This document shows, piece by piece, positions 5,729 through 57,613 of a stretch of DNA of 64,000 nt. The stretch comes from an uncultured Ignavibacteria bacterium (GTDB lineage: Bacteria > Zixibacteria > MSB-5A5 > WJJR01). The DNA lies in assembly GCA_964440935.1 (NCBI GenBank), contig CAYTTY010000012.1, positions 12,873-76,872 of the forward strand, read 5' to 3'. The position numbers and the translations under genes were made by a program. The notes below the pieces were generated by a model, which was not told the DNA's origin, made no database searches, and saw nothing but the letters and a program-made list of their open reading frames with translations. Positions within the stretch are counted from its first letter, which is position 1. Each line of letters begins with the position of its first letter.

Positions 5729-6631
5729 TCACGGTTCTGAACTCTCATCCGGGTCTGAATGGTTTGTCCTGTCGGAGCGGTCGATGCGCGCATACCAGTC
5801 GATTGCGAAGCGCCGTGCCTCGCCGTAGGACATGCCAGATTCTCCGATCAATCCGAGAATCATCGCGTCAAAACGGCCGCACCAGAGTTCACCCTGATCG
5901 GTTTCAACGCGCAGTTCACCGAGTGATCCACTGCTTATCCCTTTGAGGTGGGAGTCAATCTCACGGAACGCATCGAGAAGCGCGTTCACCGCAGGATCGC
6001 CGGTGGTTGTCGCATCGACGGGATAAATCACGTTCGCATTCTCATCCCAAGCGAACACCGATGTCACACCCCGCAACCGGCGGATCTGGTCGGCCCATTC
6101 CGCCCACGTTAGCGTTTCGTCGGGACGGGGGGTCGTGGCTGTGTCGACCATCTCGGGCTGAGTGTCGGCGGTATCGCCAATGTCGGTCGAATCGATGGTT
6201 TGCGCCGGTCGGTCACGCACTGCCTTCATTCGCGCCACGAGATCAATCACGGCCGGGTTACGCCGCTCAGCTCGCTGCAATCGTTCGATGATCGGCTGCG
6301 CCGCGGACGCGTCACCCATTTCAATGAACAGTTCCGCTTCGAGGAGATCGGTGCCCCGTGTCGAACCATCAATCTCGATCGCTTTGCGCAGCGAAGCCAT
6401 TGCATCGGGCAACATCTTTTGATGCAAAAACAATTTGGTCATTACGAGATGCGCCGGCGCATAGTCAGGATGATGTTTCAGTCCGCTTTTGCAGACGGCG
6501 AAGGCGCGTCCGAACTCACCTCGACGGCGATAGGCCTCAGCGAGGGCCGCAAAGACTTGTGAATGGGGATTGTCGGCCAGTATCGCGAGACACCGCTCGA
6601 TGCGCTCATCGAGTTCCGCTACAGTTATCAT
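5729..6631 (-). CDS. TPR-repeat protein fused to a C-terminal roadblock/LC7-like domain
   Basis: The N-terminal ~140 aa are TPR-like helical repeats (AEAYRRRGEFGRAFAVCKSGLKHHPDYAPAHLVMTKLF...). The C-terminal ~110 aa fit the roadblock fold pattern (VTSVFAWDENANVIYPVD...GELRVETDQGELWCGRFDAMILGLIGES). Confidence 0.5.
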   Translation of the reverse strand: MITVAELDERIERCLAILADNPHSQVFAALAEAYRRRGEFGRAFAVCKSGLKHHPDYAPAHLVMTKLFLHQKMLPDAMASLRKAIEIDGSTRGTDLLEAELFIEMGDASAAQPIIERLQRAERRNPAVIDLVARMKAVRDRPAQTIDSTDIGDTADTQPEMVDTATTPRPDETLTWAEWADQIRRLRGVTSVFAWDENANVIYPVDATTTGDPAVNALLDAFREIDSHLKGISSGSLGELRVETDQGELWCGRFDAMILGLIGESGMSYGEARRFAIDWYARIDRSDRTNHSDPDESSEP

Positions 6632-6822
6632 CTAGCCACCCTGGATAGACCAACCCTCTGAACAGCCCGCACCCTGCTCGCCACTTCGGGCTATCTCCTT
6701 ATGACATTTATAGGTATCGACCCTTGGGGGATTCTTCTTAACGATTGTGTGAACGGTAGAAGTGCCCTGGACAGAATCGATTGCCCGTAATTGGAAGGTG
6801 CACCACAATAGGTTAGCCGTTC

Positions 6823-7221
6823 TCACCCGGCCAGCAAGCGCCGCATCCGCGCGGCTCCCACTAAGATGATGAGCACGGCCCCCAATCGGAGGACACCAAC
6901 CCAGAAATCCGACATCGGCAGGAGCCCCGCTTCGGCTCCGAAACCGGCCATCTGTGCCAATCCGAGGACGAGAAATCCCAATGTGAACCACTGCCAGCCC
7001 TGAGCAATGCGGCCGCCGCGAACAGAATTGTACACCTTGAATGCGGTCAGCGCACAGGCCGCGGCGACCAACAACAGCGCGAGTTCAACAAGTGCGCCAC
7101 CGCTGAACATTCCGCCACCCTGCGATTCTGTTTCGGCCACGGCCATCGATGGATACAGGAGAACCACGGCTGGTCCAGCCAGTCCCAGCAGCCTATGTGT
7201 GATTCGGCTCGACATAATCAT
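6823..7221 (-). CDS. Small integral membrane protein, function unknown
   Basis: 132 aa with 3-4 hydrophobic segments. Its start overlaps the stop of the upstream PATAN gene (7218-7221), consistent with translational coupling. Confidence 0.45.
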   Translation of the reverse strand: MIMSSRITHRLLGLAGPAVVLLYPSMAVAETESQGGGMFSGGALVELALLLVAAACALTAFKVYNSVRGGRIAQGWQWFTLGFLVLGLAQMAGFGAEAGLLPMSDFWVGVLRLGAVLIILVGAARMRRLLAG

Positions 7222-12188: not shown

Positions 12189-12920
12189 CTATCGAACGAT
12201 TGCGTAACGGGCTCGCACGCGTGCGCGGATCTCAATGGGCTCAGGATTGACGGTGGTGAAGTCGGACGGATCCGGGATGATGTGCTGTGGACGTTGCTGC
12301 TCAAACAGGTCATCGGAGCCTGGAATTGGATGTGTTTCTTCGGGCGTCGGCGCATTGGAGAGTTCTTCGCAACCCAATGGCGGGCCGAGTGTCACATTCA
12401 ATTCGCGTGCAACGACCTCGGCGCGGCGACGCGCGTCATCAATGGCGTCTTCGAGAGCGGATTCGTAGACCACTCTTGGTTCATCGAGTTGAAAATTCAT
12501 CGTAATCTTCGCTGCCTTGAGATTATGCGCACGATCAAGCATGTCGGTGGCGGCGGTGAAATCATCGAGACGGACACGCATCGTGATCGTCGCCCAGAAC
12601 GCGAGACGTTTCGGTTCATCGGGCAACGGTCTGCGGATCATTGCGCGGTCGAGTCGCCAGTCGCCGGGATCGAGGCCGAATTGACGGAACTCGACAACCA
12701 TTTCCTCGGCACGGGCATCGACCGCCTCGGCAGCCTCTCTCGCGGTTGGAGCAATCGACATGACGGTGATTCCGAGTTCAAGCACTGTTGGCGGTTTACT
12801 CTGCACACTCGAACCCCACACGACGATCTCGCGGTCGGATTGTTGTGCATGTGCCGCCCCGACGGTTAGACATCCGATGAGAATGACGGCAGCCGTTATG
12901 AGTAACGTTCGTTTTGTCAT
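12189..12920 (-). CDS. SIMPL/DUF541 (YggE-like) periplasmic protein with signal peptide
   Basis: The internal Met at 12920 gives MTKRTLLITAAVILIGCLTVGAAHAQ (signal peptide), then a DUF541-like body (KITMNFQLDEP...). The longer ORF upstream to 13109 has no plausible N-terminus. Confidence 0.55.
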   Translation of the reverse strand: MTKRTLLITAAVILIGCLTVGAAHAQQSDREIVVWGSSVQSKPPTVLELGITVMSIAPTAREAAEAVDARAEEMVVEFRQFGLDPGDWRLDRAMIRRPLPDEPKRLAFWATITMRVRLDDFTAATDMLDRAHNLKAAKITMNFQLDEPRVVYESALEDAIDDARRRAEVVARELNVTLGPPLGCEELSNAPTPEETHPIPGSDDLFEQQRPQHIIPDPSDFTTVNPEPIEIRARVRARYAIVR

Positions 12921-46185: not shown

Positions 46186-47907
46186 TTACGGCAGGCCGGG
46201 GAGGTTCATCCCCCGGTCTTTGGCAAATCCGACTGCTTCATCGTACCCGGCGTCGACGTGGCGCATCACCCCGGTCCCGGGATCGTTGACCAAAACGCGC
46301 GACAGGCGGCCGTCGGCGTCCTCCGATCCATCGGCGACGATCACCATGCCGGCGTGGATCGACTGGCCCATGCCGACCCCTCCCCCATGGTGAATCGATA
46401 CCCATCCGGCGCCGGAAACGGCATTGAGCAACCCATTGAGTAGAGGCCAGTCGGCCACAGCGTCGGACGTATCTTTCATGCCCTCCGTCTCGCGATTCGG
46501 TGAAGCGACCGAACCGCAGTCGAGATGATCCCGACCGATGACAATCGGCGCCGAGATCTTTCCGTCGCGCACCAGCTTATTGATGATCAAACCGAACTTG
46601 TCGCGTTCGCCATACCCGAGCCAGCAGATGCGTGCCGGCAATCCCTGGAACTTGACTTTCTCGGAGGCGAGACGAATCCAGCGACACAAGGGTTCATTAT
46701 AGGAGAATTCACGAAGGATTACGTCATCGGTGACGGCAATATCCTTGGGGTCGCCGGAGAGCGCCACCCAGCGGAACGGTCCTTTGCCATAGCAGAATAA
46801 CGGACGGATATATGCCGGCACAAATCCGGGATACTCGAACGCGTTTTCGTAGCCTGCTTTCTGTGCCTGTCCGCGCAGATTATTGCCGTAGTCGAATGCA
46901 ATGGCGCCGGCTTTCTGCATCGCCACAATCGCCTGGCAATGCCACGCCATCGAATCGAACGAACGACGGATGTACTCGTCGGGATCCTCGACGCGCATTT
47001 GTGCGGCCTCGGAGACAGACAGTCCCGACGGCACATAACCGTAGAGTTCGTCATGCGCCGACGTCTGATCGGTGACGACATCCGGAATGACATTGCGCTT
47101 GACCATTTCAGGAAGAACGTCAGCGCAGTTGCCGACCAACCCGATCGACAACGGTTGCTTCTTTGCAACGGCGTCGTTCACCCAGTTTAGTGCTTCATCG
47201 AGAGATGATGTCTTGCGATCACAATACGCGGTCTTGATGCGGCGGTCGATACGCGCTTCATCGACCTCGACAACCAACGCGATGCCGCCGTTGAGAGTCA
47301 CCGCCAACGGTTGCGCACCACCCATGCCGCCCATCCCGCCGGTGAGCACCCATCGACCGGCAAGGCTGCCGTCGAAGTGACGGGTGGCCAGCGATGCGAG
47401 TGTCTCGTAGGTGCCCTGCAGGATGCCCTGTGTGCCGATGTAAATCCAGGATCCGGCGGTCATCTGGCCGAACATCATCAGTCCAAGAGCATCGAGCCGG
47501 CGGAACTCCTCCCAGTTGGCCCAATTGCCAACGAGGTTGGAGTTGGCAATCAGAACACGCGGCGCCGACGGCTGTGTCTTGAATATGCCGACCGGCTTGC
47601 CCGATTGGACCAGCAGTGTTTCGTCGTTTTCCAAATCCTTCAGCGACGCGATAATCGTGTGAAAACAGTCCCAGTTGCGTGCGGCCTTGCCGGAGCCGCC
47701 GTAGACAATCAACTCGTCGGGCTTCTCGGCCACATCCGGGTCGAGATTGTTCTGGATCATGCGGAACGCGGCTTCCTGAATCCATCCCTTGCACGTACGT
47801 TCACTGCCCCGTGGCGCGCGGACGGCAGTGGCCGGCGCGCCGGCTGCCGTTGTCATTGCATCTGGTGTTGTGGCCATGGCTGTACTCCTCAATTGCAGAA
47901 CCGTCAT
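46186..47907 (-). CDS. hutU: Urocanate hydratase
   Basis: 573 aa. Matches urocanase along its full length (...[22 protein letters not shown]...[13 protein letters not shown]...[13 protein letters not shown]...). Confidence 0.9.
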
Positions 47908-50198
47908 GCGACTCGCGACGCGGTCACACGTTCATCCATGAGCGTGGGAATACAATCGCGATGCAGAGCGCGCAGTTCTTCGATCGATTCGTCGATGAAC
48001 GGTTTGATGACGAATCGTCCGCCCTCGGCGACCCGGCCAATAATGGTGAGCGGGATGTACGCGTCCTGTGTGGCTTGTTCGATCACATGACGATTGGCAT
48101 CGTCAAACGATATAACGACACGTGACTGAGATTCACCGAAGAGGTAGGCGTCGGGACGAATATCACCTACATCCACCTCGCAGTCAAGACCCCAGAGATG
48201 ATCGTCGCGGCCGATGCACGATTCAAACAATGCGACCGCCAGACCACCGTCAGAACAGTCGTGCGCCGAGGCGATCCACTGATTCTGAATCGCGCGCAAG
48301 AGGAACTGTTGGACGGCCTTTTCCCGCGCGAGATCGAGGGCGGGGACCTTACCGGTCGTCAATCCGTAGATCGTCTTCAGGTATTCCGAAGCGCCAAGTT
48401 CATTCCGCGTTTCCCCGATGACCGCGATGTAGTCGGTCGATGATTTGAAGTCGTTGGTGGTGATATGGCGAACATCGGTGATCTTGCCAATCATGCCGAT
48501 GGTCGGCGTCGGGTAGACGGCGCGCGGCCCCTCTTCGTTGTAGAAACTGACATTGCCGCCGGTGACGGGTGTCCCAAAAAAGCGGCAGGCCTCGCCCATA
48601 CCACGCACACATTCAGCGAACTGGTAGTAGACGTCGGGCTTGTACGGATTGCCAAAGTTGAGGCAATTGGTAATGGCCAACGGTTGCGCCCCGACACACA
48701 CAAGATTGCGTGCGGCTTCGGCGACGGCGATTTGCGCACCGCGTCGGGGATTGAGATAGCAATAACGGCCATTGCCGTCGGTTGCAGCGGCCAGGGCGGT
48801 GTTGGTCTTGCGGATTCTCAAGACGGCGGCATCCATACCTGGGCCGATGGCGGTATTGGTTCGAACGCTGGTATCGTATTGGTGATACACCCAGCTCTTG
48901 TCGGCCAGATTGGGTGACCCCACCAGACGTTTCAGTATGTCCCCGTAATTGTCCGGTTGTGATATGCTATCCTGATCCCAGGACTGTGCGGTGTCGATGT
49001 AATCCGGTTTCTTTTCGGCACGTTTGTATTGTGGAGTCCGACCACCAAGTGCCAGCGCATCGGCGGGAACGTCGACTTTGCGTTCACCGTTATGATCGAC
49101 GATGAAGCGGCCGCCTTCAATCACCTGCCCGATTCGCTCCGCCTCCAATTGCCACTTTTTGAAAATGGCGATGACATCATCCTCCCGTCCCGGGCGAACG
49201 ATTACGAGCATGCGCTCTTGCGATTCGGACAGAAGAATCTCGTATGGCGTCATCCCCTCTTCGCGCACCGGGACCCGTCCCGTGTCGATATGCATCCCCT
49301 GTCCGCCACGGAAAGCGGTTTCGGAACACGAGCAGGTAATGCCGGCCGCGCCCATATCCTGGATGCCGACGAGCAAGTCGGCGTCGATCATTTCGAGCGT
49401 CGCTTCGAGTAGGAGCTTTTCGGTGAAGGGATCGCCGATTTGCACCGACGGGCGGCGCGATTCAGATTCCTCGGAGAGTTCCTCCGATGCGAAGGTGGCG
49501 CCATGGATGCCGTCGCGTCCGGTCTTCGAACCAACGATGTAGACCGGCGCGCCCACTTCGGATGCCGACCCGCGGGCGATCTTGTCGGTCTTGACCATAC
49601 CGATCGCCATCGCGTTAACGAGCGGGTTGCCGGTGTACGAATCCTCAAAGATCATCTCACCGCCGATGGTGGGGACACCAAAGCAATTCCCGTAACCGCC
49701 GATACCTCGCACCACGCCATCAACCAAAAACCGCACACGCGGGTTGTCGAGACTGCCGAAACGCAAAGAATCGAGGCTCGCAATAGGACGCGCACCCATC
49801 GTGAATATGTCACGCAAAATGCCGCCGACACCGGTCGCGGCGCCCTGATACGGCTCGACCGCCGAGGGATGATTGTGCGATTCGATCTTGAAGACGACCG
49901 CGAGACCGTCATCCCAATCGACCACACCAGCATTCTCCTCCCCGGCCTTGGCCAGCATCATTGGTCCTTCTTTGGGAAGCGTCTTGAGGAGAACAATCGA
50001 ATTTTTGTAGGAACAGTGTTCCGACCACATGACCGAAAAGACGCCGAGTTCGGTGTAATTCGGTTCTCGCCCAAGGATCGACTTGATCATCTCGTATTCG
50101 TCGGGTGTGATCCCGTGCTGGGCGACAAGCTCTGGTGTGACAGTGGGTTCGTGCATCGGCTCTTCCTGAGAGTCAAACTCTAAATCTATGCACCCCAC
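47904..50198 (-). CDS. purL: Phosphoribosylformylglycinamidine synthase subunit PurL (FGAM synthase II)
   Basis: 764 aa. Duplicated AIRS/AIRS_C (PurM-like) domain architecture and length typical of small PurL. Its start overlaps the hutU stop. Confidence 0.9.
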
Positions 50199-50306
50199 CG
50201 GGAATAGACAATCCCGTTATGGGCATTCTGACAGGAAATAGAAGCCGGGCTGTGAGTGCCCCCCACTCCCGGCTTCTCAGACAATAAATGTATCGATTTC
50301 AGGATA

Positions 50307-53300
50307 TCAGAAATCGGCGCCCAGTGAGAAGTAGTACTTCGGATGGGCAGCCACCACGTCGAGATCCGTCCGCCACGCCTGATCGAACCGTAACAGTACA
50401 AACCCCAGGTTGGCCCGCAATCCGTAGCCGAAGGCCATCTTGATGTCTTCGAGGTGGAATCCGTTGGCGCTGCTGGTTCCGCGGAACTTATCGTTGTCGC
50501 TCCACGCCGAGCCAACATCGGTAAAAAGCACACCGCCGATCTGGCTGAGCACTAACGGTAGTGGAAAGCGCATGGCGAAGTAGTCGACGAATGGAAAGCG
50601 GAATTCGGCATTGAGCAAGCCGAATCGCGATCCGTCGATTTCGTAGTAGTCATACCCTCGGAACGGGGTAATCAACTGGCTGAAATACAATCCCTCCACG
50701 TCGTACACACTCGACCGGCTAATCGTTGATCCGATCCAGTTGCTCATGCCGCCCAGATAGAATCGTTTCGGATTGCTGCCTCCGGACACACCGCCGGCCA
50801 GACGCAGGGCCACGCTGTAGCGGCCACCGAGACGGGCGTACTGACGGAAGTCGAAGGTCATCGCCCGGTAGCTGATCCCGTCGGAGAACCCGTCGGGAGC
50901 GGCCTCCAGCGACACGCGATAACGCCGGCCGCTTTTCGGGGCGGTCATCCCCCAGGTCGAATTGTCGTGAACCATTGACAATACGCCGACGGCAACGCGA
51001 TCCGACCGGTCGCGTTCGGGCGGTTCCGGCCGATCCACGAACCGCCGGTCGATAAACACCATCATACCGTCGAGTTGCAGCCGTGTGAACTTGGAGAACG
51101 GTCGGGCAACATTCGCCTGGAAACCGTACGTGCGGTCACTGAACAGCTTATTGTTGAAATTCAAATAGAAGTACTTTGAGTGGAACAAACCGATGCCGTA
51201 GTCGATCCGCTTCGGCGTGTACCGGTAATACACTTGAATGTTCGACTGATCGATTGTGTTGATGAGATCAGTGGCAACGAAGACCTGGTGATCGCCCAGG
51301 TAGTCGGAGATGACAAAGAACGACTGTCCACGCAACCCGAAGAAGGTGTCATAGCCAAGGCCACCGGTTACCAGATCGGGCGTGAATTTCGGTGAGTAGT
51401 CGTGGACCTCGTATTCGGTCAGCACGGTGTCGGCTTGGGCAACCATTGTGGCCGATGTGGTGTCGTCCTCCGCCACTGCCATCTCATCAAGGTCTTCCGG
51501 CGTCGGCGGACCGAGCGGCTGGCGGGCCGCGGTCGTGTCCCCTGACGTTGCCGAGGTGTCGTCCTTGATCGGCCGGTGCTCGTACGGAGTACTCGCCGGC
51601 TGGACGAACGACGTGAACTCCAAGTCTTCCGAGAGCAGCTTGGGCGCGCGTTCTTCCAATTCGACCTCACGACGAATGACGAACGCACTGGAATCCTCAC
51701 CGGATAGCCGTCGTACAAATGCCGTGGGCGCGAGATTCTTGCCCGGCTCCGCCTTGGGTCGAATGTCTGTCATCAAAAACACATCGAAACCACCGCGGTA
51801 GAATGCGGAGAATGCGATCTGCTGTCCATCGGGAGACCAGGACGGGCTGAAGCAACCGGAAATGGCATCGGTGACCGGAAACGGCTCCGCACCGAGCGAG
51901 TCGATGATGTACAGATTATAGATACCGTTCTTGTTGGAGACGAAGCAGATTCGGTTCCCGTCGGGCGCATACACCGGTGTTTTGTCTTCGGCATCGTCGT
52001 TTGTCAACGGATGCACCGTCCGCGTTACCAAATTCGCTTCGAAGACGTTGTAGCGGCCGAATGCGAACGTGGCCGGATTCTGATCGTCAGGCAGCATCAA
52101 TGGCGTGGTGGCGTCGGACGGCCGGTCGGCGGCGAAGATGATGCGATCACCGTCGGGATGGAAATGAGCATCCTGCTCATCGTAACGGTCGTTTGTGAGC
52201 CGAGTCACCGATTCGGTCGCGAGATCGACGAGATAGAGATCGTTTTGATCGTGGCGGTTCGCGGTTACGACAATCGACTTGCCGTCGGGAGAAAACGACG
52301 GCGACCGCATTGATTGAAAGCCGAAGCGCAACGTTTGATCGTCACCGCTGCCATCGACATCGAGCAACATCAAGGCGTCGTGGCCGCCCGACTTGGCAAT
52401 CAGGGCGAGCGTGGAACCGTCGGGAGAGAAGTCCATACCTGACACAAAAGAATGCAGTGATTCAAAGCGATCGGTCCGTCCGCCTTTGATCACTGTGCCC
52501 AAGTGTTCGCCGTCAACGGTCGAGATGATTTGCACTTCCGTATTGTCGGCTTTCTCAGTAAGAATGGCGATGCGATTACCGCGGGGCGAGAACACCGGTT
52601 TCTCATTGAAATACGAACCGTCTTCTTCGTGGTCGGTAAGCTGGCGCGCGAACAACTCCGGTTCTTCGCGAATCGAGATTTCGGGCCAGTACTCCTTGCG
52701 CAGGCGCTTTTGCCACTCCTCATTGAACTCTTCGATACCCTTCCCGATCGTCTTTTTCAAGGAGTTGTCCATAGTGAGTTCAAACCGCCCCTTGGACAAC
52801 ACCTCTGCGATTTTCTCTTCACCGTAACGTTCGGCGAGATACAGGACCGCGGACTGCCCTTGCTTGTAGGCGAGGTAGCCGCCGACGTAATTCAGCGGGA
52901 TGAGATAGTTGTGCACGGTGGCGTCGCGGATGACCATATCGGCGAACGTGTCCCATCCGTGGCGAGAGGAATACTCCGCAAATCCCTCGGCAAACCAGAG
53001 CGGAACATTGAAAAGCGCCTGCCGTGAGAAGATCGAGCCGACGCCGCTGAACAGCATGTCGAAGGTCACGGCATGCGTGAGTTCATGGTGCAACACATGG
53101 CGGAAGTCCTCGTACGATCCGGTGAACGGCATCACCATGCGGTTCTTAAACGATTCGGTGAACCCCCCGACCCCCTCTTCCAGCAGGCTGCTGGTGACGT
53201 TGGTCTGTTGGAATTCGTTGTGCGATTGGTAGATGATCGCCGGGACGCGATTTTGCAGCGAGTAGTTCAATTCCTCGGAGACTTGCACGTACGCCGATTC

Positions 53301-53510
53301 GAGCACGGTTGCCGTAAACACGGCGAGGCCGTAGCCACCGTCATAGAAGTAGACGTCAAAGTGCTCGGAGGATATGTACTGCCAGTCGAAATCGCGATAC
53401 TGGACTTTGTTCTTGCCGAACTGGGCGACGGCCTCGGATCCGTCGAGGGCTCCGGAAAGGAGAATGCCCAACGCAATGAGAGCCAGCGTAAGGAACCGTA
53501 ACGTCATCAA
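50307..53510 (-). CDS. Large secreted outer-membrane protein: signal peptide, then a HExxH zincin-like domain, a TolB/PD40-type beta-propeller, and a C-terminal Omp85 (BamA/surface antigen D15)-type beta-barrel
   Basis: Signal peptide MMTLRFLTLALIALGILLSGA. VLHHELTHAV is a HExxH motif. PD40-like repeats are present (PSFSPDGKSIV, PVYAPDGNRICFVSNKNG). The C-terminus ...KMAFGYGLRANLGFVLLRFDQAWRTDL...KYYFSLGADF matches the Omp85 barrel terminal signature ending in Phe. Confidence 0.5.
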   Translation of the reverse strand: MMTLRFLTLALIALGILLSGALDGSEAVAQFGKNKVQYRDFDWQYISSEHFDVYFYDGGYGLAVFTATVLESAYVQVSEELNYSLQNRVPAIIYQSHNEFQQTNVTSSLLEEGVGGFTESFKNRMVMPFTGSYEDFRHVLHHELTHAVTFDMLFSGVGSIFSRQALFNVPLWFAEGFAEYSSRHGWDTFADMVIRDATVHNYLIPLNYVGGYLAYKQGQSAVLYLAERYGEEKIAEVLSKGRFELTMDNSLKKTIGKGIEEFNEEWQKRLRKEYWPEISIREEPELFARQLTDHEEDGSYFNEKPVFSPRGNRIAILTEKADNTEVQIISTVDGEHLGTVIKGGRTDRFESLHSFVSGMDFSPDGSTLALIAKSGGHDALMLLDVDGSGDDQTLRFGFQSMRSPSFSPDGKSIVVTANRHDQNDLYLVDLATESVTRLTNDRYDEQDAHFHPDGDRIIFAADRPSDATTPLMLPDDQNPATFAFGRYNVFEANLVTRTVHPLTNDDAEDKTPVYAPDGNRICFVSNKNGIYNLYIIDSLGAEPFPVTDAISGCFSPSWSPDGQQIAFSAFYRGGFDVFLMTDIRPKAEPGKNLAPTAFVRRLSGEDSSAFVIRREVELEERAPKLLSEDLEFTSFVQPASTPYEHRPIKDDTSATSGDTTAARQPLGPPTPEDLDEMAVAEDDTTSATMVAQADTVLTEYEVHDYSPKFTPDLVTGGLGYDTFFGLRGQSFFVISDYLGDHQVFVATDLINTIDQSNIQVYYRYTPKRIDYGIGLFHSKYFYLNFNNKLFSDRTYGFQANVARPFSKFTRLQLDGMMVFIDRRFVDRPEPPERDRSDRVAVGVLSMVHDNSTWGMTAPKSGRRYRVSLEAAPDGFSDGISYRAMTFDFRQYARLGGRYSVALRLAGGVSGGSNPKRFYLGGMSNWIGSTISRSSVYDVEGLYFSQLITPFRGYDYYEIDGSRFGLLNAEFRFPFVDYFAMRFPLPLVLSQIGGVLFTDVGSAWSDNDKFRGTSSANGFHLEDIKMAFGYGLRANLGFVLLRFDQAWRTDLDVVAAHPKYYFSLGADF

Positions 53511-53644
53511 TCACTCCTCATGTGGTCAGGTACGAACGCCCGGCGAGGAAGGTCGATCCGCAACCCCGAATCTGCCATATTGAACCAGCCAAGTGGTGGA
53601 TTGTTCCGCCTCCATTGATCCATAGGGACTACACCTGAGGCGGA

Positions 53645-54910
53645 TTAATCATCCTCTACACGAGAGATATCGGCTCCCAATTGGGCCAGCTTCGTCTCTA
53701 GATTCTGATAGCCGCGATCAATGTGATACACACGGCGGATCGTCGACTCGCCTTCGGCCGCCAATGCCGCCAGGACAAGTCCTGCGCCGGCACGGATATC
53801 GGAGGCCATGACGGCGGCTCCACGTAGGGCGGGGACGCCGGCGATGCGCACTTCATTGCCGGTGACGTTGATGTCGGCACCCATGCGGACCAACTCCATC
53901 GAGTGGGAGTATCGGTTAGGAAACACGGTATCAACGACTTGCGACGGTCCATCGGCAATCGTAAGGGCCGACAGGATCGCCGGCTGCAAATCAGTGGGAA
54001 AGCCGGGATACGGAAAGGTGGCGACTTGGGCCGGATAGAGCCGGGCCGGGCCCTTGATTGTCATGCGCTTCTTCGTCGTAGTGATCTTGGCGCCCATTTC
54101 GACCAGCTTGGCGGTGACGGCTTCGAGATGTCCCGATTCGACACTACGCGTTTCGACGGTGCCTTTGGTCATGGCTCCGGCGAGCAAGAATGTACCCGCC
54201 TCGAGTCGGTCAGGAATGGCGCGGTGCTCCACACCTTTGAGCTTCTTGACGCCGGTGATACGGATGGTGGCGGTCCCTGCTCCCTGAATCTTGGCTCCCA
54301 TCTTGGTGAGCATGTCGGCCAGGTCGGCAATCTCCGGGTCACAACCGGCGTTCACCAGGACAGTCTCCCCCGGGGTGGTGGCGGCCGCGAGCATGAGATT
54401 CTCGGTACCGGTATGAGTCGGCCGGTCGAAGACAAATGTCGTAGACTTCATTCGGGAGCCATCGCACTTGATGTACCCGTGATCATCGGTACACTTCGCC
54501 CCCATTGTGGTGAAGCCTTTGATATGCAAATCGACCGGACGCGGCCCGAAAGCGCATCCGCCAGGCAGGGACACACGTGCTTTCCGCATCCGTCCCAGCA
54601 AGGCTCCCAAGACGAGAAACGACGCACGCATGCGGCGCATCAAGTCGTACGGGACTTCGTGGGTCGTCAAGTGCGTGGCATCAATGATCAATGTCCGCTG
54701 GCCGGCATCGTAGCTGGTATGGGCTCCGAGGTGAGTGACCACATCGATCGACGTGCGGACATCGGCCAGGTCGGGGACATCAAGGAGTGTGGTGCGGCCG
54801 TTTTCGGCCAGCAGTGCGGCGCAAATTTGTGGCAGAATCGCATTCTTGGCCGGAGCGACCGTCACCGAGCCGGAGAGGCGACGGCCACCGTTTATGATGA
54901 ATTTATCCAA
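53645..54910 (-). CDS. murA: UDP-N-acetylglucosamine 1-carboxyvinyltransferase
   Basis: MDKFIINGGRRLSGSVTVAPAKNAILPQICAALLA... and a catalytic Cys context ...PGGCAFGPRPVDLH...; length 421 aa. Confidence 0.9.
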   Translation of the reverse strand: MDKFIINGGRRLSGSVTVAPAKNAILPQICAALLAENGRTTLLDVPDLADVRTSIDVVTHLGAHTSYDAGQRTLIIDATHLTTHEVPYDLMRRMRASFLVLGALLGRMRKARVSLPGGCAFGPRPVDLHIKGFTTMGAKCTDDHGYIKCDGSRMKSTTFVFDRPTHTGTENLMLAAATTPGETVLVNAGCDPEIADLADMLTKMGAKIQGAGTATIRITGVKKLKGVEHRAIPDRLEAGTFLLAGAMTKGTVETRSVESGHLEAVTAKLVEMGAKITTTKKRMTIKGPARLYPAQVATFPYPGFPTDLQPAILSALTIADGPSQVVDTVFPNRYSHSMELVRMGADINVTGNEVRIAGVPALRGAAVMASDIRAGAGLVLAALAAEGESTIRRVYHIDRGYQNLETKLAQLGADISRVEDD

Positions 54911-55072
54911 ATATCCCTACCCCCGGAATCGAAGATCGTCTGTTCGCGCGAGCGGCTCCTGTTGCATTTTACACAGCGACACCGAACCCGCTCCCATATA
55001 TGCACGATGCTGGAATTGATCGGAACTAATTTCTGACTCACGCGGAGCGATCATTCTCACCTATATTACTCG

Positions 55073-55822
55073 TTGAATTGGCTCATGAACAATCCCACGC
55101 CTGTCATCTTCTTTTCTGACGCCCATTTCGGCGCTCACGACCCTAAGCAAGAGTCGGTGAAGGTCGAACGATTCGTCTCGCTGTTGGATCATGCCGGAAT
55201 GATGAGTGCGGAGGTGTTCTTCCTCGGCGATCTCTTCGATTTCTGGTTTGAATACAAGCACTGGATTCCCAAGGTGCCATTGGAGGTATTGACTGCCATT
55301 CAGCGGTTTAGCCGCGCGGGCAATGCGTTCCACCTCGTGCTGGGGAATCATGACACCTGGGCGACTGATTACTTTGCCGAAGACTTAGGAGTTGTTGTGC
55401 ATCGTGGCGATGTCGAGGAGACGCGCCATGGCTTGCGTCTGCTGATCTCACACGGTGACGGGAAGGCGCGGTCTGATCGTGGGTATCGTGTTCTGAGACG
55501 GATCCTGCGATTTCGTCCGAATATCGCCCTGTACCGCCTCCTGCCTGCCGACCTGGCTTTTGGGCTCGCCAATTTCTTTTCGGGCCAATCGCGCGAATTG
55601 ACATCGGGACGGCCGCCGAAATTCCTGCAGGAGTACGATGCCATCGCCGAGCAGTTGCTCGCAGACAGCTACGATGCGGTGTTGATGGGGCACCTGCACC
55701 AGGGGTGGGTGCGGAAAGTCGAGAACGGGTGGTGGATCAATACCGGTGAGTTCTTCGAAGCGTTTCATTATGTGGTTTTGGAGAATGGGTCGTTTGAGTT
55801 GCGGACGTGGGACCAAGGGTAA
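55073..55822 (+). CDS. Metallophosphoesterase of the LpxH (UDP-2,3-diacylglucosamine hydrolase) family
   Basis: Calcineurin-like motifs in LpxH-type spacing: FFSDAHFGAHD, FLGDLFDFW, VLGNHDTW, SHGDG, GHLH. Divergent from murA. Confidence 0.6.
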   Translation: MNWLMNNPTPVIFFSDAHFGAHDPKQESVKVERFVSLLDHAGMMSAEVFFLGDLFDFWFEYKHWIPKVPLEVLTAIQRFSRAGNAFHLVLGNHDTWATDYFAEDLGVVVHRGDVEETRHGLRLLISHGDGKARSDRGYRVLRRILRFRPNIALYRLLPADLAFGLANFFSGQSRELTSGRPPKFLQEYDAIAEQLLADSYDAVLMGHLHQGWVRKVENGWWINTGEFFEAFHYVVLENGSFELRTWDQG

Positions 55823-56068: not shown

Positions 56069-57613
56069 CTACACAAAACGCAGCAAATCACCCGCTGTCC
56101 GAGCACTGGTGGTACTGATCGCAACGCCATCGAGAGAACAACAGACGGGACGTGTGCAACAGACCTGACCGGATGATCCGGCTGTAAGGTTTAACACACC
56201 ATTCAACCCCAATCGGCGCGAGAGCCCGACATCAAGGAGCGAGCCACCGGCAGACGCAATGACCTCCATCCACCCTCGCTTTTGCGCCTGGCGCAGCACG
56301 CCGGGCGTTGCGGGGCACACCAGCAGCGCCTGATCACCGGCAACACGACGCCCACGAACGGTTGCAGCAATCTGCTCGATTTCATAGGGCAAAGCCGCAG
56401 GGCCGATGATAATTCCTCCGGAGTAAGACGATTCCGGCTGAGCCACTTTGGTGCCCGAGTTCGCGACGAACGGGGCCAGTCCGCTTCCCTCGATGAAGTG
56501 TTCACCATCGTAGACGGCCGTCCGGTCGGGATGGCTCTGCGGGAACCGGCCCCGCAATTGACGGCCGAAGTGGCGGCGGATGACATCATCGAATGGTGTC
56601 AGTGCGGCGGCGGCGCCGTAATGAACAATCAATGAGGCCAGCTTTGCCTTGCGGTCGATGGAGAGACGTTCGACCGCAGCGCCGAGGAGCTCGACAATGG
56701 CCCCGTTCCAATCCTCCTGCACACCGCGTGCAAGAAGTGCCAACGCCAGATCCTCCACTTCGATTTTGGATCCCAGTTTGCGTGTCACTTCAATCTTGAG
56801 AACGCGAGTGTTCTGATTGCGGGCGTGTTCGTCAGACAGCACCAGTATCCCTGCCCCACCGAGTCCAGTGATGCGGGAGTCGTTATCAATCACCAGTTGC
56901 CCCGGCAGGATGGCCCCCGCTTCGATGAGCTGCCATTCGATTTGTCCGAATTCCTCGGATAGCCAGACCGGCTCCTCGAGTTCGCCGGATGGGATCGCAT
57001 CGGGCACAAAGCGGCTGCGTGGCGCAATCGGCTGCGGACCGGGACTGAGGACCGTGTGCCGCGCACCGTCATCGCCGACATCATGGAGTCGCCAGTCGGC
57101 CGCAAGCTGAGAGTCGGGCCACTCGGCATGACAACGCTCGCGAATCTTGTGTGAACCGGTTTTGGGCGTCGTGACGGTGGGAGTGGCGGATGTCGCTGCG
57201 GTGGCACCCAAGCGTAGTTCCAATTGCTCGAGTTTCAACACTGCCGGGCGCTCGAGGATGTTGTACTTCCGGCGCCAACTGTAGAATGCGGCTTTCGAGA
57301 TATTCAGTTCACGGCCACAGCGGAAATCGTCGCCGTACCGCGACCAGAGTTCATCGATTTGCTCGTAGCTGAATTTCGGCGCACTGTACCGCGGCAGACC
57401 TTTCTTCCGTCGCCAGTACGCCACGAGGTATTCCTCGACGGCCAACACCTCGGCGATGCGGGCATCGGTCTTGTATAGCGATTGGAGTCGTAGCAGCTCG
57501 CTTTTCTTTGGACACTTCATCGCTAAATCAATTCCCTGTGCTGCCGGTCCGGCAGCGCTCAACGCTACTGAAGCCAAGAGGACGAAGATAGACGAGTCCA
57601 AGGCCAAATTCAA
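56069..57613 (-). CDS. Hypothetical protein: an N-terminal transposase-type helix-turn-helix pair fused to a ~380-aa domain of unknown function with a C-terminal Cys cluster
   Basis: Residues ~30-130 (KKSELLRLQSLYKTDARIAEVLAVEEYLVAYWRRKKG...NISKAAFYSWRRKYNIL) resemble IS3/IS630 OrfA HTH. The C-terminus has GSSGQVCCTRPVCCSLDG. No confident family assignment is possible from sequence alone. Confidence 0.35.
   Translation of the reverse strand: MNLALDSSIFVLLASVALSAAGPAAQGIDLAMKCPKKSELLRLQSLYKTDARIAEVLAVEEYLVAYWRRKKGLPRYSAPKFSYEQIDELWSRYGDDFRCGRELNISKAAFYSWRRKYNILERPAVLKLEQLELRLGATAATSATPTVTTPKTGSHKIRERCHAEWPDSQLAADWRLHDVGDDGARHTVLSPGPQPIAPRSRFVPDAIPSGELEEPVWLSEEFGQIEWQLIEAGAILPGQLVIDNDSRITGLGGAGILVLSDEHARNQNTRVLKIEVTRKLGSKIEVEDLALALLARGVQEDWNGAIVELLGAAVERLSIDRKAKLASLIVHYGAAAALTPFDDVIRRHFGRQLRGRFPQSHPDRTAVYDGEHFIEGSGLAPFVANSGTKVAQPESSYSGGIIIGPAALPYEIEQIAATVRGRRVAGDQALLVCPATPGVLRQAQKRGWMEVIASAGGSLLDVGLSRRLGLNGVLNLTAGSSGQVCCTRPVCCSLDGVAISTTSARTAGDLLRFV

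Follow-up and report, generated by a model that had tools for sequence, protein, structure and literature searches.

What can be assigned to a bacterial protein that joins, in one polypeptide, a peptidase-like domain, a β-propeller and an outer-membrane barrel of the Omp85 type? This question is raised by a gene on the minus strand of a 64,000-nucleotide stretch of DNA from an uncultured Ignavibacteria bacterium (GTDB lineage Bacteria; Zixibacteria; MSB-5A5; WJJR01), corresponding to positions 12,873 to 76,872 of contig CAYTTY010000012.1 in GenBank assembly GCA_964440935.1. We refer to this whole stretch as the window, and all coordinates are given relative to its first nucleotide. The complete gene, including its stop codon, occupies 50307..53507 (coordinates checked by re-translation) and encodes a WD40/PD40-Omp85 protein of 1066 amino acids (aa). 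Our analysis indicates that the product very probably belongs to the WD40-Omp85 subfamily and is a zinc peptidase, likely to be active, that is associated with a propeller and anchored in the outer membrane. Computational evidence supports export through Sec, a barrel of the Omp85 type that carries the signature motifs, a zincin fold in which the catalytic residues are conserved, a TolB-type propeller and a flexible tether replacing the POTRA domains. For the window itself the outcome is mainly one of annotation, the gene being the Zixibacteria orthologue of a catalogued family.

The minus-strand open reading frame (ORF) is unbroken from 50307 to 53510 in the ORF listing, with a TTG at 53510 as the start chosen by the ORF finder and an ATG at 53507 as the next codon. 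Because a GGAG precedes this ATG, and because the ATG-started product is matched over its full length and at 100% identity by a database protein of exactly 1066 aa (P0001), the ATG at 53507 is the likely translation start. Residues 1-28 (MTLRFLTLALIALGILLSGALDGSEAVA, then QF; 53424..53507, on the minus strand like all other features of the gene) read as a Sec-type signal peptide without a lipobox cysteine, the cleavage site having been placed by eye following the -3/-1 Ala rule; the corresponding helix spans residues 2-21 in an AlphaFold2 model of the protein. The possibility that the fusion results from mis-assembly or a missed stop codon was rejected, as independent assemblies yield over 100 full-length homologues of the same layout.

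Three Pfam families, each above its curated cut-off, are recognized in the product: Peptidase_MA_2 at residues 72-269 (46.2 bits against a cut-off of 32.4, E 6e-12), PD40 repeats (85.4 bits against 20.9, E 2e-24) and the Omp85 family PF01103 at residues 772-1066 (49.5 bits against 24, E 5.7e-13). The AlphaFold2 model, built from an alignment of 67 full-length homologues, has a predicted local distance difference test score (pLDDT) of 77.9 and a predicted template modelling score of 0.73, and in it a zincin is followed by a propeller, a disordered linker and a barrel of 16 strands. No POTRA family is reported by Pfam at E<=1, and between propeller and barrel the model contains only the disordered linker. 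NCBIfam yields no equivalog: the matches to TolB, BamA, TamL, flagellinolysin and lasso peptidase all lie far below their cut-offs, so the protein is none of these named equivalogs. Searches against the sequences of solved structures returned no solved member of the WD40-Omp85 family; the propeller is matched by TolB and, weakly, the C-terminus by one BamA.

This arrangement agrees in most respects with an earlier note on the same DNA, made from the sequence alone. The signal peptide, the zincin-like domain around a HExxH motif, the PD40/TolB-type propeller and the lack of POTRA domains that it proposed are all borne out, and the strings that it quoted are present in the protein (VLHHELTHAV at residues 138-147, FGYGLRANLGFVLLRFD and YYFSLGADF at the C-terminus). 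The barrel, ascribed there to the BamA/TamA/TpsB superfamily, is recovered by PF01103 and has BamA and TamA, not TpsB, as its best matches; the C-terminal ~380 aa given for it correspond to residues 705-1066 (362 aa).

The peptidase assignment concerns residues 40-290 (52638..53390), a mixed β/helical domain in the model, where the family profile Peptidase_MA_2 coincides with a thermolysin-like catalytic fold. The defining residues of a gluzincin (clan MA), HExxH and a downstream glutamate, are found as H141-E-L-T-H145, the zinc-binding and catalytic motif (HELTH, residues 141-145; 53073..53087), and as E174, the presumed third zinc ligand, located 28 residues past H145 within the motif WFAEGFA (residues 171-177; 52977..52997). 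A GGFTE loop precedes the HExxH motif (residues 114-118; 53154..53168). Among the 67 Zixibacteria homologues, which share 47-86% identity, H141, E142, H145, W171, E174, G175, A177, E178 and the complete G114-G-F-T-E118 loop are invariant. We also aligned a cross-phylum set of full-length relatives at 26-34% identity from Marinimicrobia, WOR-3, Gemmatimonadota and Acidobacteriota genomes; here HExxH is kept in 17 sequences from five phyla, the downstream E-G pair and E178 are also kept across phyla, and E118 of the loop becomes Ser or Thr in Acidobacteriota homologues. On this pattern of conservation, the N-terminal peptidase is predicted to be catalytically competent.

Fold searches with the peptidase return 4ar1, 4ar9, 1z1w/1z5h (F3), 3qnf and 4fgm, the closest folds being those of M30 lugdulysin and the M9 collagenases, with a further resemblance to M1 and M61 aminopeptidases. 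We take the 28-residue spacing between H145 and E174 to resemble that of M9 collagenases, and WFAEGFA to resemble the WLNEGFA of M1 peptidases; more speculatively, the GGFTE loop may be a substrate-binding edge segment whose position recalls the GxMEN of M1 peptidases. The likeness to M9 collagenases and M1 aminopeptidases is one of fold only: in Pfam, Peptidase_M9 scores 16.8 bits against a cut-off of 26 and Peptidase_M1 is not matched. Two segments flanking the active site, residues 102-119 (~53151-53204), rich in invariant residues (QQTN, GGFTE), and residues 157-164 (~53016-53039), have pLDDT values below 50 in the model. Both could be flexible loops, acting as lids or in substrate binding, which take up an ordered structure only once zinc or substrate is present.

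The same conservation bears on whether the protein needs to be an enzyme at all. As a non-proteolytic envelope scaffold, it would act as a BamA-BamB-like platform or as a TolB-like tether to Pal or peptidoglycan-associated partners, its zincin serving for binding only. The closest relatives of the propeller are indeed TolB proteins, and in Thermoanaerobaculia a gene for a TPR protein lies directly upstream of the homologue on the same strand. Against such a scaffold, HExxH, the glutamate ligand and their surroundings are invariant within the phylum and kept over five phyla; because this is the conservation expected of an active enzyme and not of a degenerate binding module, we consider the scaffold very unlikely. 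The score of the TolB equivalog (128.7 against 343 bits), from a match limited to the propeller portion of TolB, also speaks against it.

The propeller occupies residues 298-580 (51768..52616) and comprises about six four-stranded blades by strand count in the AlphaFold2 model. Besides PD40, it is assigned to the TolB type by a profile search against sequences of solved structures (E 5e-23) and by Foldseek comparison with the PDB. DPPIV_N reaches 32.8 bits in this protein, and the precomputed Pfam matches of its homologues include Tricorn_N, Tricorn_2nd and DPPIV_N. An acidic low-complexity linker follows at residues 581-704 (51396..51767), with a net charge of -14 and an abundance of A, E, T, D and P; it stands in for POTRA domains, and its residues 610-694 are disordered in the model (pLDDT ~30). 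Across phyla the linker varies in length from ~30 to 125 aa and has at least 30 aa in every homologue.

Residues 705-1066 (50310..51395) form a 16-stranded Omp85-type barrel, in which a long loop 6 connects strand 11 to strand 12. In the model, the 16 strands extend over residues 708-1062 and loop 6 over residues 910-960, a layout like that of BamA, and Foldseek comparison with the PDB returns BamA and TamA as the best matches at E ~1e-11; a phmmer search aligns the C-terminus, weakly, to a Fusobacterium BamA. The loop-6 (V/I)RG(Y/F) signature of Omp85 proteins is present as F949-R950-G951-Y952 (RGY, residues 950-952; 50652..50660), and the FxDxG motif, its partner in BamA-type barrels, as FTDVG (residues 995-999; 50511..50525). 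R950, G951, F995, D997, G999 and G1063, the last lying three residues before the C-terminal F1066, are invariant in the 67 Zixibacteria homologues. Across phyla, RG(Y/F) is mostly kept, as are FxDxG and the C-terminal aromatic residue. The barrel thus combines a profile match above threshold, 16 predicted strands with a long loop 6, and the loop-6, FxDxG and C-terminal aromatic motifs that characterize Omp85 proteins. With both catalytic and barrel motifs conserved across phyla, we predict an active enzyme borne on a functional Omp85 barrel.

Retention of the barrel motifs also matters for a simpler account, in which the barrel is a mere anchor for a periplasmic peptide-trimming enzyme, engaged in nutrition or in the turnover of peptidoglycan peptides and having no link to outer-membrane protein biogenesis. 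The resemblance of the peptidase fold to M1 and M61 aminopeptidases would suit such an enzyme, as would, speculatively, the loose likeness of GGFTE to GxMEN, and no conserved BAM-related (β-barrel assembly machinery) partner genes occur among the loci examined. As a rule, however, bacteria tether periplasmic enzymes by a lipid and not by a 16-strand barrel, and the strict maintenance across phyla of RGY, FxDxG and the C-terminal glycine and aromatic residue suggests selection on barrel function, although these motifs may simply serve folding. We regard the mere anchor as improbable.

How widespread is this architecture, and has it been seen before? The closest relatives are labelled Candidatus Zixiibacteriota, one of them (L001) being 95% identical, and the architecture recurs in Zixibacteria, Marinimicrobia, WOR-3, Gemmatimonadota and Acidobacteriota. 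A search with the peptidase domain alone against 1.84 billion representative proteins, clustered at 50% identity, matched 3914 clusters, of which 710 had E<=1e-30. Nearly all of the 150 best-scoring ones among these 3914 are 900-1170 aa long, the length of the full architecture, with the peptidase domain starting at residue 20-45; this peptidase type is therefore essentially dedicated to WD40-Omp85 proteins. Ten mid-length relatives (635-845 aa) contain only Peptidase_MA_2 and PD40, without any other C-terminal domain or secretion tag, and are probably fragments from contig ends.

The earlier note had called the architecture unusual, a description that does not survive comparison with the literature and with this distribution. 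Heinz & Lithgow (2014, Front Microbiol 5:370, PMC4104836) split the Omp85/TpsB superfamily into ten subfamilies, among them 'WD40-Omp85', which their Table S2 defines by the Pfam profiles PF01103 and PF07676 (PMC4104836). Their Table S3 lists ~100 members, with Phyre2 matches to BamA/TamA (4k3b, 4c00), to TolB (2w8b, 2ivz) and in a 'best aminopeptidase hit' column that names F3 (1z5h), 4kxd, 3qnf and the collagenases 4ar1 and 4ar9 (PMC4104836). The main text treats the propeller only, as a BamA-BamB-like fusion, leaving the peptidase to the supplementary column, and states the need for experiments (PMC4104836). A 2016 paper names 'WD40-Omp85' in a list (PMC5582053), and a 2024 paper attributes 'divergent WD40 and peptidase domains' to the subfamily (PMC11358297). 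Literature searches turned up no functional study of the WD40-Omp85 architecture, only the 2014 classification and papers citing it. The architecture has thus been catalogued since 2014 and is widely conserved, over many diderm phyla, and the Zixibacteria protein joins an existing family. To that classification the present analysis adds data on how the catalytic residues are conserved, on the barrel motifs, on the variability of the linker and on the synteny of the gene. It delineates a large family, present in many diderm phyla, that maintains an intact catalytic site together with the Omp85 signature.

Where the peptidase works is less clear-cut than what it is. In all solved Omp85 structures that we know of, among them BamA, TamA and FhaC, the chain ahead of strand 1 is periplasmic, and for this reason we would expect the peptidase-propeller unit in the periplasm. 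The protein, exported by its Sec signal peptide, would be held in the outer membrane by its C-terminal 16-strand barrel, and the peptidase and propeller would hang in the periplasm just below that membrane. In tricorn, DPP-IV and prolyl-oligopeptidase enzymes, the propeller admits only peptides or chains that are unfolded. By analogy with these enzymes, the propeller may restrict access here as well, so that unfolded chains or peptides alone would reach the zinc site. Likely substrates would be envelope polypeptides, such as mis-assembled outer-membrane proteins or lipoproteins, in parallel to BepA, a soluble zinc protease that works with the BAM complex (PMC8423444). Since its functional motifs are retained, the barrel may do more than anchor. 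We give this periplasmic, envelope-directed mechanism an even chance of being correct.

The principal competitor is a self-exported surface peptidase, in line with the idea in the earlier note of a surface-exposed peptidase anchored by its own barrel. In this type-V-like scheme, the barrel would translocate its own passenger, the linker would come to rest in the lumen, and the enzyme would break down proteins or peptides outside the cell for nutrition. Export of this kind has a model in the patatin-Omp85 protein PlpD, which delivers an N-terminal enzyme through an Omp85-type barrel (PMC4104836); a linker of at least 30 aa, as found in every homologue, could span a barrel. M30 lugdulysin and the M9 collagenases, the nearest folds, are generally known as extracellular enzymes, and the carrier phyla are likewise known to include many degraders of polymers and proteins. 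Several observations tell against surface export. POTRA domains are missing here, whereas PlpD and the TpsB translocators have one; the barrel resembles those of BamA and TamA, in which the lumen is closed on the outside (PMC4104836); and the passenger would be a globular two-domain unit of 550 aa. Moreover, the ten mid-length homologues have no alternative secretion tag, and the gene has a stable housekeeping synteny in Zixibacteria and not a nutrient-uptake locus. On balance, a surface location appears rather unlikely.

The periplasmic, envelope-directed reading must itself be set against several considerations. A linker of 30-125 aa is long enough to thread the barrel lumen and so makes surface display possible; its length fits either topology and does not discriminate between them. 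Model confidence is low for the loops at residues 102-119 and 157-164, which flank the active site. Neighbouring genes belong mostly to housekeeping metabolism, and none identifies a specific partner or substrate. Finally, judging by the UniProt accessions in Table S3, some organisms may have more than one paralogue, and a set of paralogues would be no less compatible with diversified substrates than with one role in quality control.

An extension of the periplasmic reading, to which we assign a low probability, would make the protein a counterpart, in one polypeptide, of BAM and BepA together. At its lateral seam, the BamA-like barrel, in which the C-terminal glycine and the loop-6 motifs are conserved, would capture the β-signal of mis-assembled barrel proteins, which would then be passed via the propeller to the peptidase. 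If true, Zixibacteria, Marinimicrobia, WOR-3, Gemmatimonadota, Acidobacteriota and the other carriers would use a single-chain disposal machine. Locating the peptidase and its substrates would establish what one of the ten Omp85/TpsB subfamilies does, and would tell whether proteolysis can be linked directly to an Omp85 barrel.

Within the window, aroA, encoding EPSP synthase (53645..54910, minus strand; Pfam EPSP_synthase, E 8e-92), lies directly upstream of the WD40-Omp85 gene on the same strand, across a 137-nt gap, and the two may be co-transcribed. The same arrangement is found in three distant Zixibacteria loci (L024, L025 and L026; 46-48% identity), so that aroA directly precedes the gene in every Zixibacteria locus examined, and aroA is best described as a conserved neighbour, not a functional partner. 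Directly downstream is purL (47904-50198, minus strand), as also in L001, with hutU and rsmB farther along in the window. In Thermoanaerobaculia, the homologue is followed, 2-5 kb downstream, by a purQ-purL-purF block (L011, L013, L017 and L021, at about 12.8-18.3 kb), so that linkage to purine genes occurs in two phyla. A promoter and terminator scan of 49900-55300 found no more sites than in shuffled controls and none in the intergenic gaps, including the gap next to aroA; the window contains no paralogue of the gene, no tRNA and no Rfam family.

Divergently oriented beyond aroA is a gene for an LpxH-like calcineurin-type metallophosphoesterase (55073..55822, plus strand), matched by Pfam Metallophos and, at 68.8 bits against a cut-off of 134, by NCBIfam LpxH. 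Clustering of neighbours places an LpxH-like gene near the homologue in eight loci. Such a neighbour occurs in Zixibacteria, Marinimicrobia, an unclassified metagenome-assembled genome and Gemmatimonadota, with LpxH scores of 68.8-104 bits against the same cut-off of 134. In L001, aroA sits between the two genes; in L002 (7110-7841), L003 (2935-3681) and L016 (2261-2968) the LpxH-like gene is immediately divergent from the homologue, and in three Gemmatimonadota loci it lies within 3-6 kb; further positions are 1107-1964 in L006, 4691-5206 in L015 and 1034-1822 in L019. The 'Metallo-Omp85' subfamily of Heinz & Lithgow has a domain of the same Pfam family (PF00149) fused to its Omp85 barrel. 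As a weak hint, the recurrence of the LpxH-like neighbour may reflect an old envelope-gene synteny, or it may be due to chance.

Other loci present neighbourhoods of a different kind. Genes for a 164-aa TPR protein and a 262-aa protein stand directly upstream of the Thermoanaerobaculia homologue on the same strand (6621-7115 and 7112-7900 in L007), with equivalents in L008, L009, L011, L013, L014, L017, L018, L020 and L021; the only match of the 262-aa protein is a weak, FlgT_M-like one below cut-off (E 7e-4). These two proteins could be operon partners of the homologue. TPR proteins accompany BAM, as BamD, and BepA. In the Zixibacteria locus L024 (1154-2686 and 17265-23411), genes for LptE, two PorV-like barrels, a TonB-dependent receptor and a Lon-like protease fall within the 10-kb flanks, an outer-membrane-rich neighbourhood that is not seen in the window. 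Two further ORFs of the window complete the picture: one of 514 aa (56069-57613, minus strand) matches the Aconitase family over residues 233-372 alone (51 bits), short of the full aconitase architecture, and one of 377 aa (53903-55036, plus strand), antisense to aroA and without a Pfam match, is almost certainly a shadow ORF in a genome of ~57% GC.

Among known systems, BamA and TamA share with this protein the 16-strand barrel, the RG(Y/F) motif of loop 6, FxDxG and a C-terminal aromatic residue with a glycine three positions before it, and they are its best structural matches. Unlike BamA (TIGR03303) and TamA, it is without POTRA domains, its N-terminal region consisting of an enzyme and a propeller, and the equivalog scores remain well short of their cut-offs in NCBIfam (35.3 bits against 297.15 for BamA, 25.9 against 400 for TamL). 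TolB likewise has a six-bladed PD40 propeller and is the best match for residues 298-580 in both sequence and structure. The difference from TolB (TIGR02800, cut-off 343.15) is that the best match covers positions 198-300 of the profile and not the N-terminal α/β domain, and that the propeller is here fused to a barrel and a peptidase.

The resemblance to BepA acting with BAM, a zinc metallopeptidase on the periplasmic side of a BamA-type barrel, is an analogy only. BepA, a zinc protease of family M48 in the periplasm, binds to BAM and removes outer-membrane proteins that have stalled there (PMC8423444, PMC13478230). It is a soluble, separate polypeptide with TPR repeats, whereas here a Peptidase_MA_2 gluzincin and a propeller are covalently fused to the barrel. 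PlpD, the type Vd patatin-Omp85 protein, also fuses an N-terminal enzyme domain to an Omp85-type 16-strand barrel (PMC4104836), but its passenger is a patatin lipase and it includes a POTRA domain; Pfam finds neither in the protein studied here. In tricorn, DPP-IV and prolyl oligopeptidase, a PD40-type propeller likewise adjoins a peptidase domain; those are serine peptidases, in contrast to the zincin described here, for which gating by the propeller is suggested by that parallel.

The closest correspondence is with the WD40-like Omp85 subfamily, whose three-part architecture is identical, with no POTRA domain and a zincin ahead of the propeller, and whose defining profiles are present in this protein. 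Our own fold searches independently recovered the structures listed in Table S3; Zixibacteria proteins were absent from the 2014 UniProt set.

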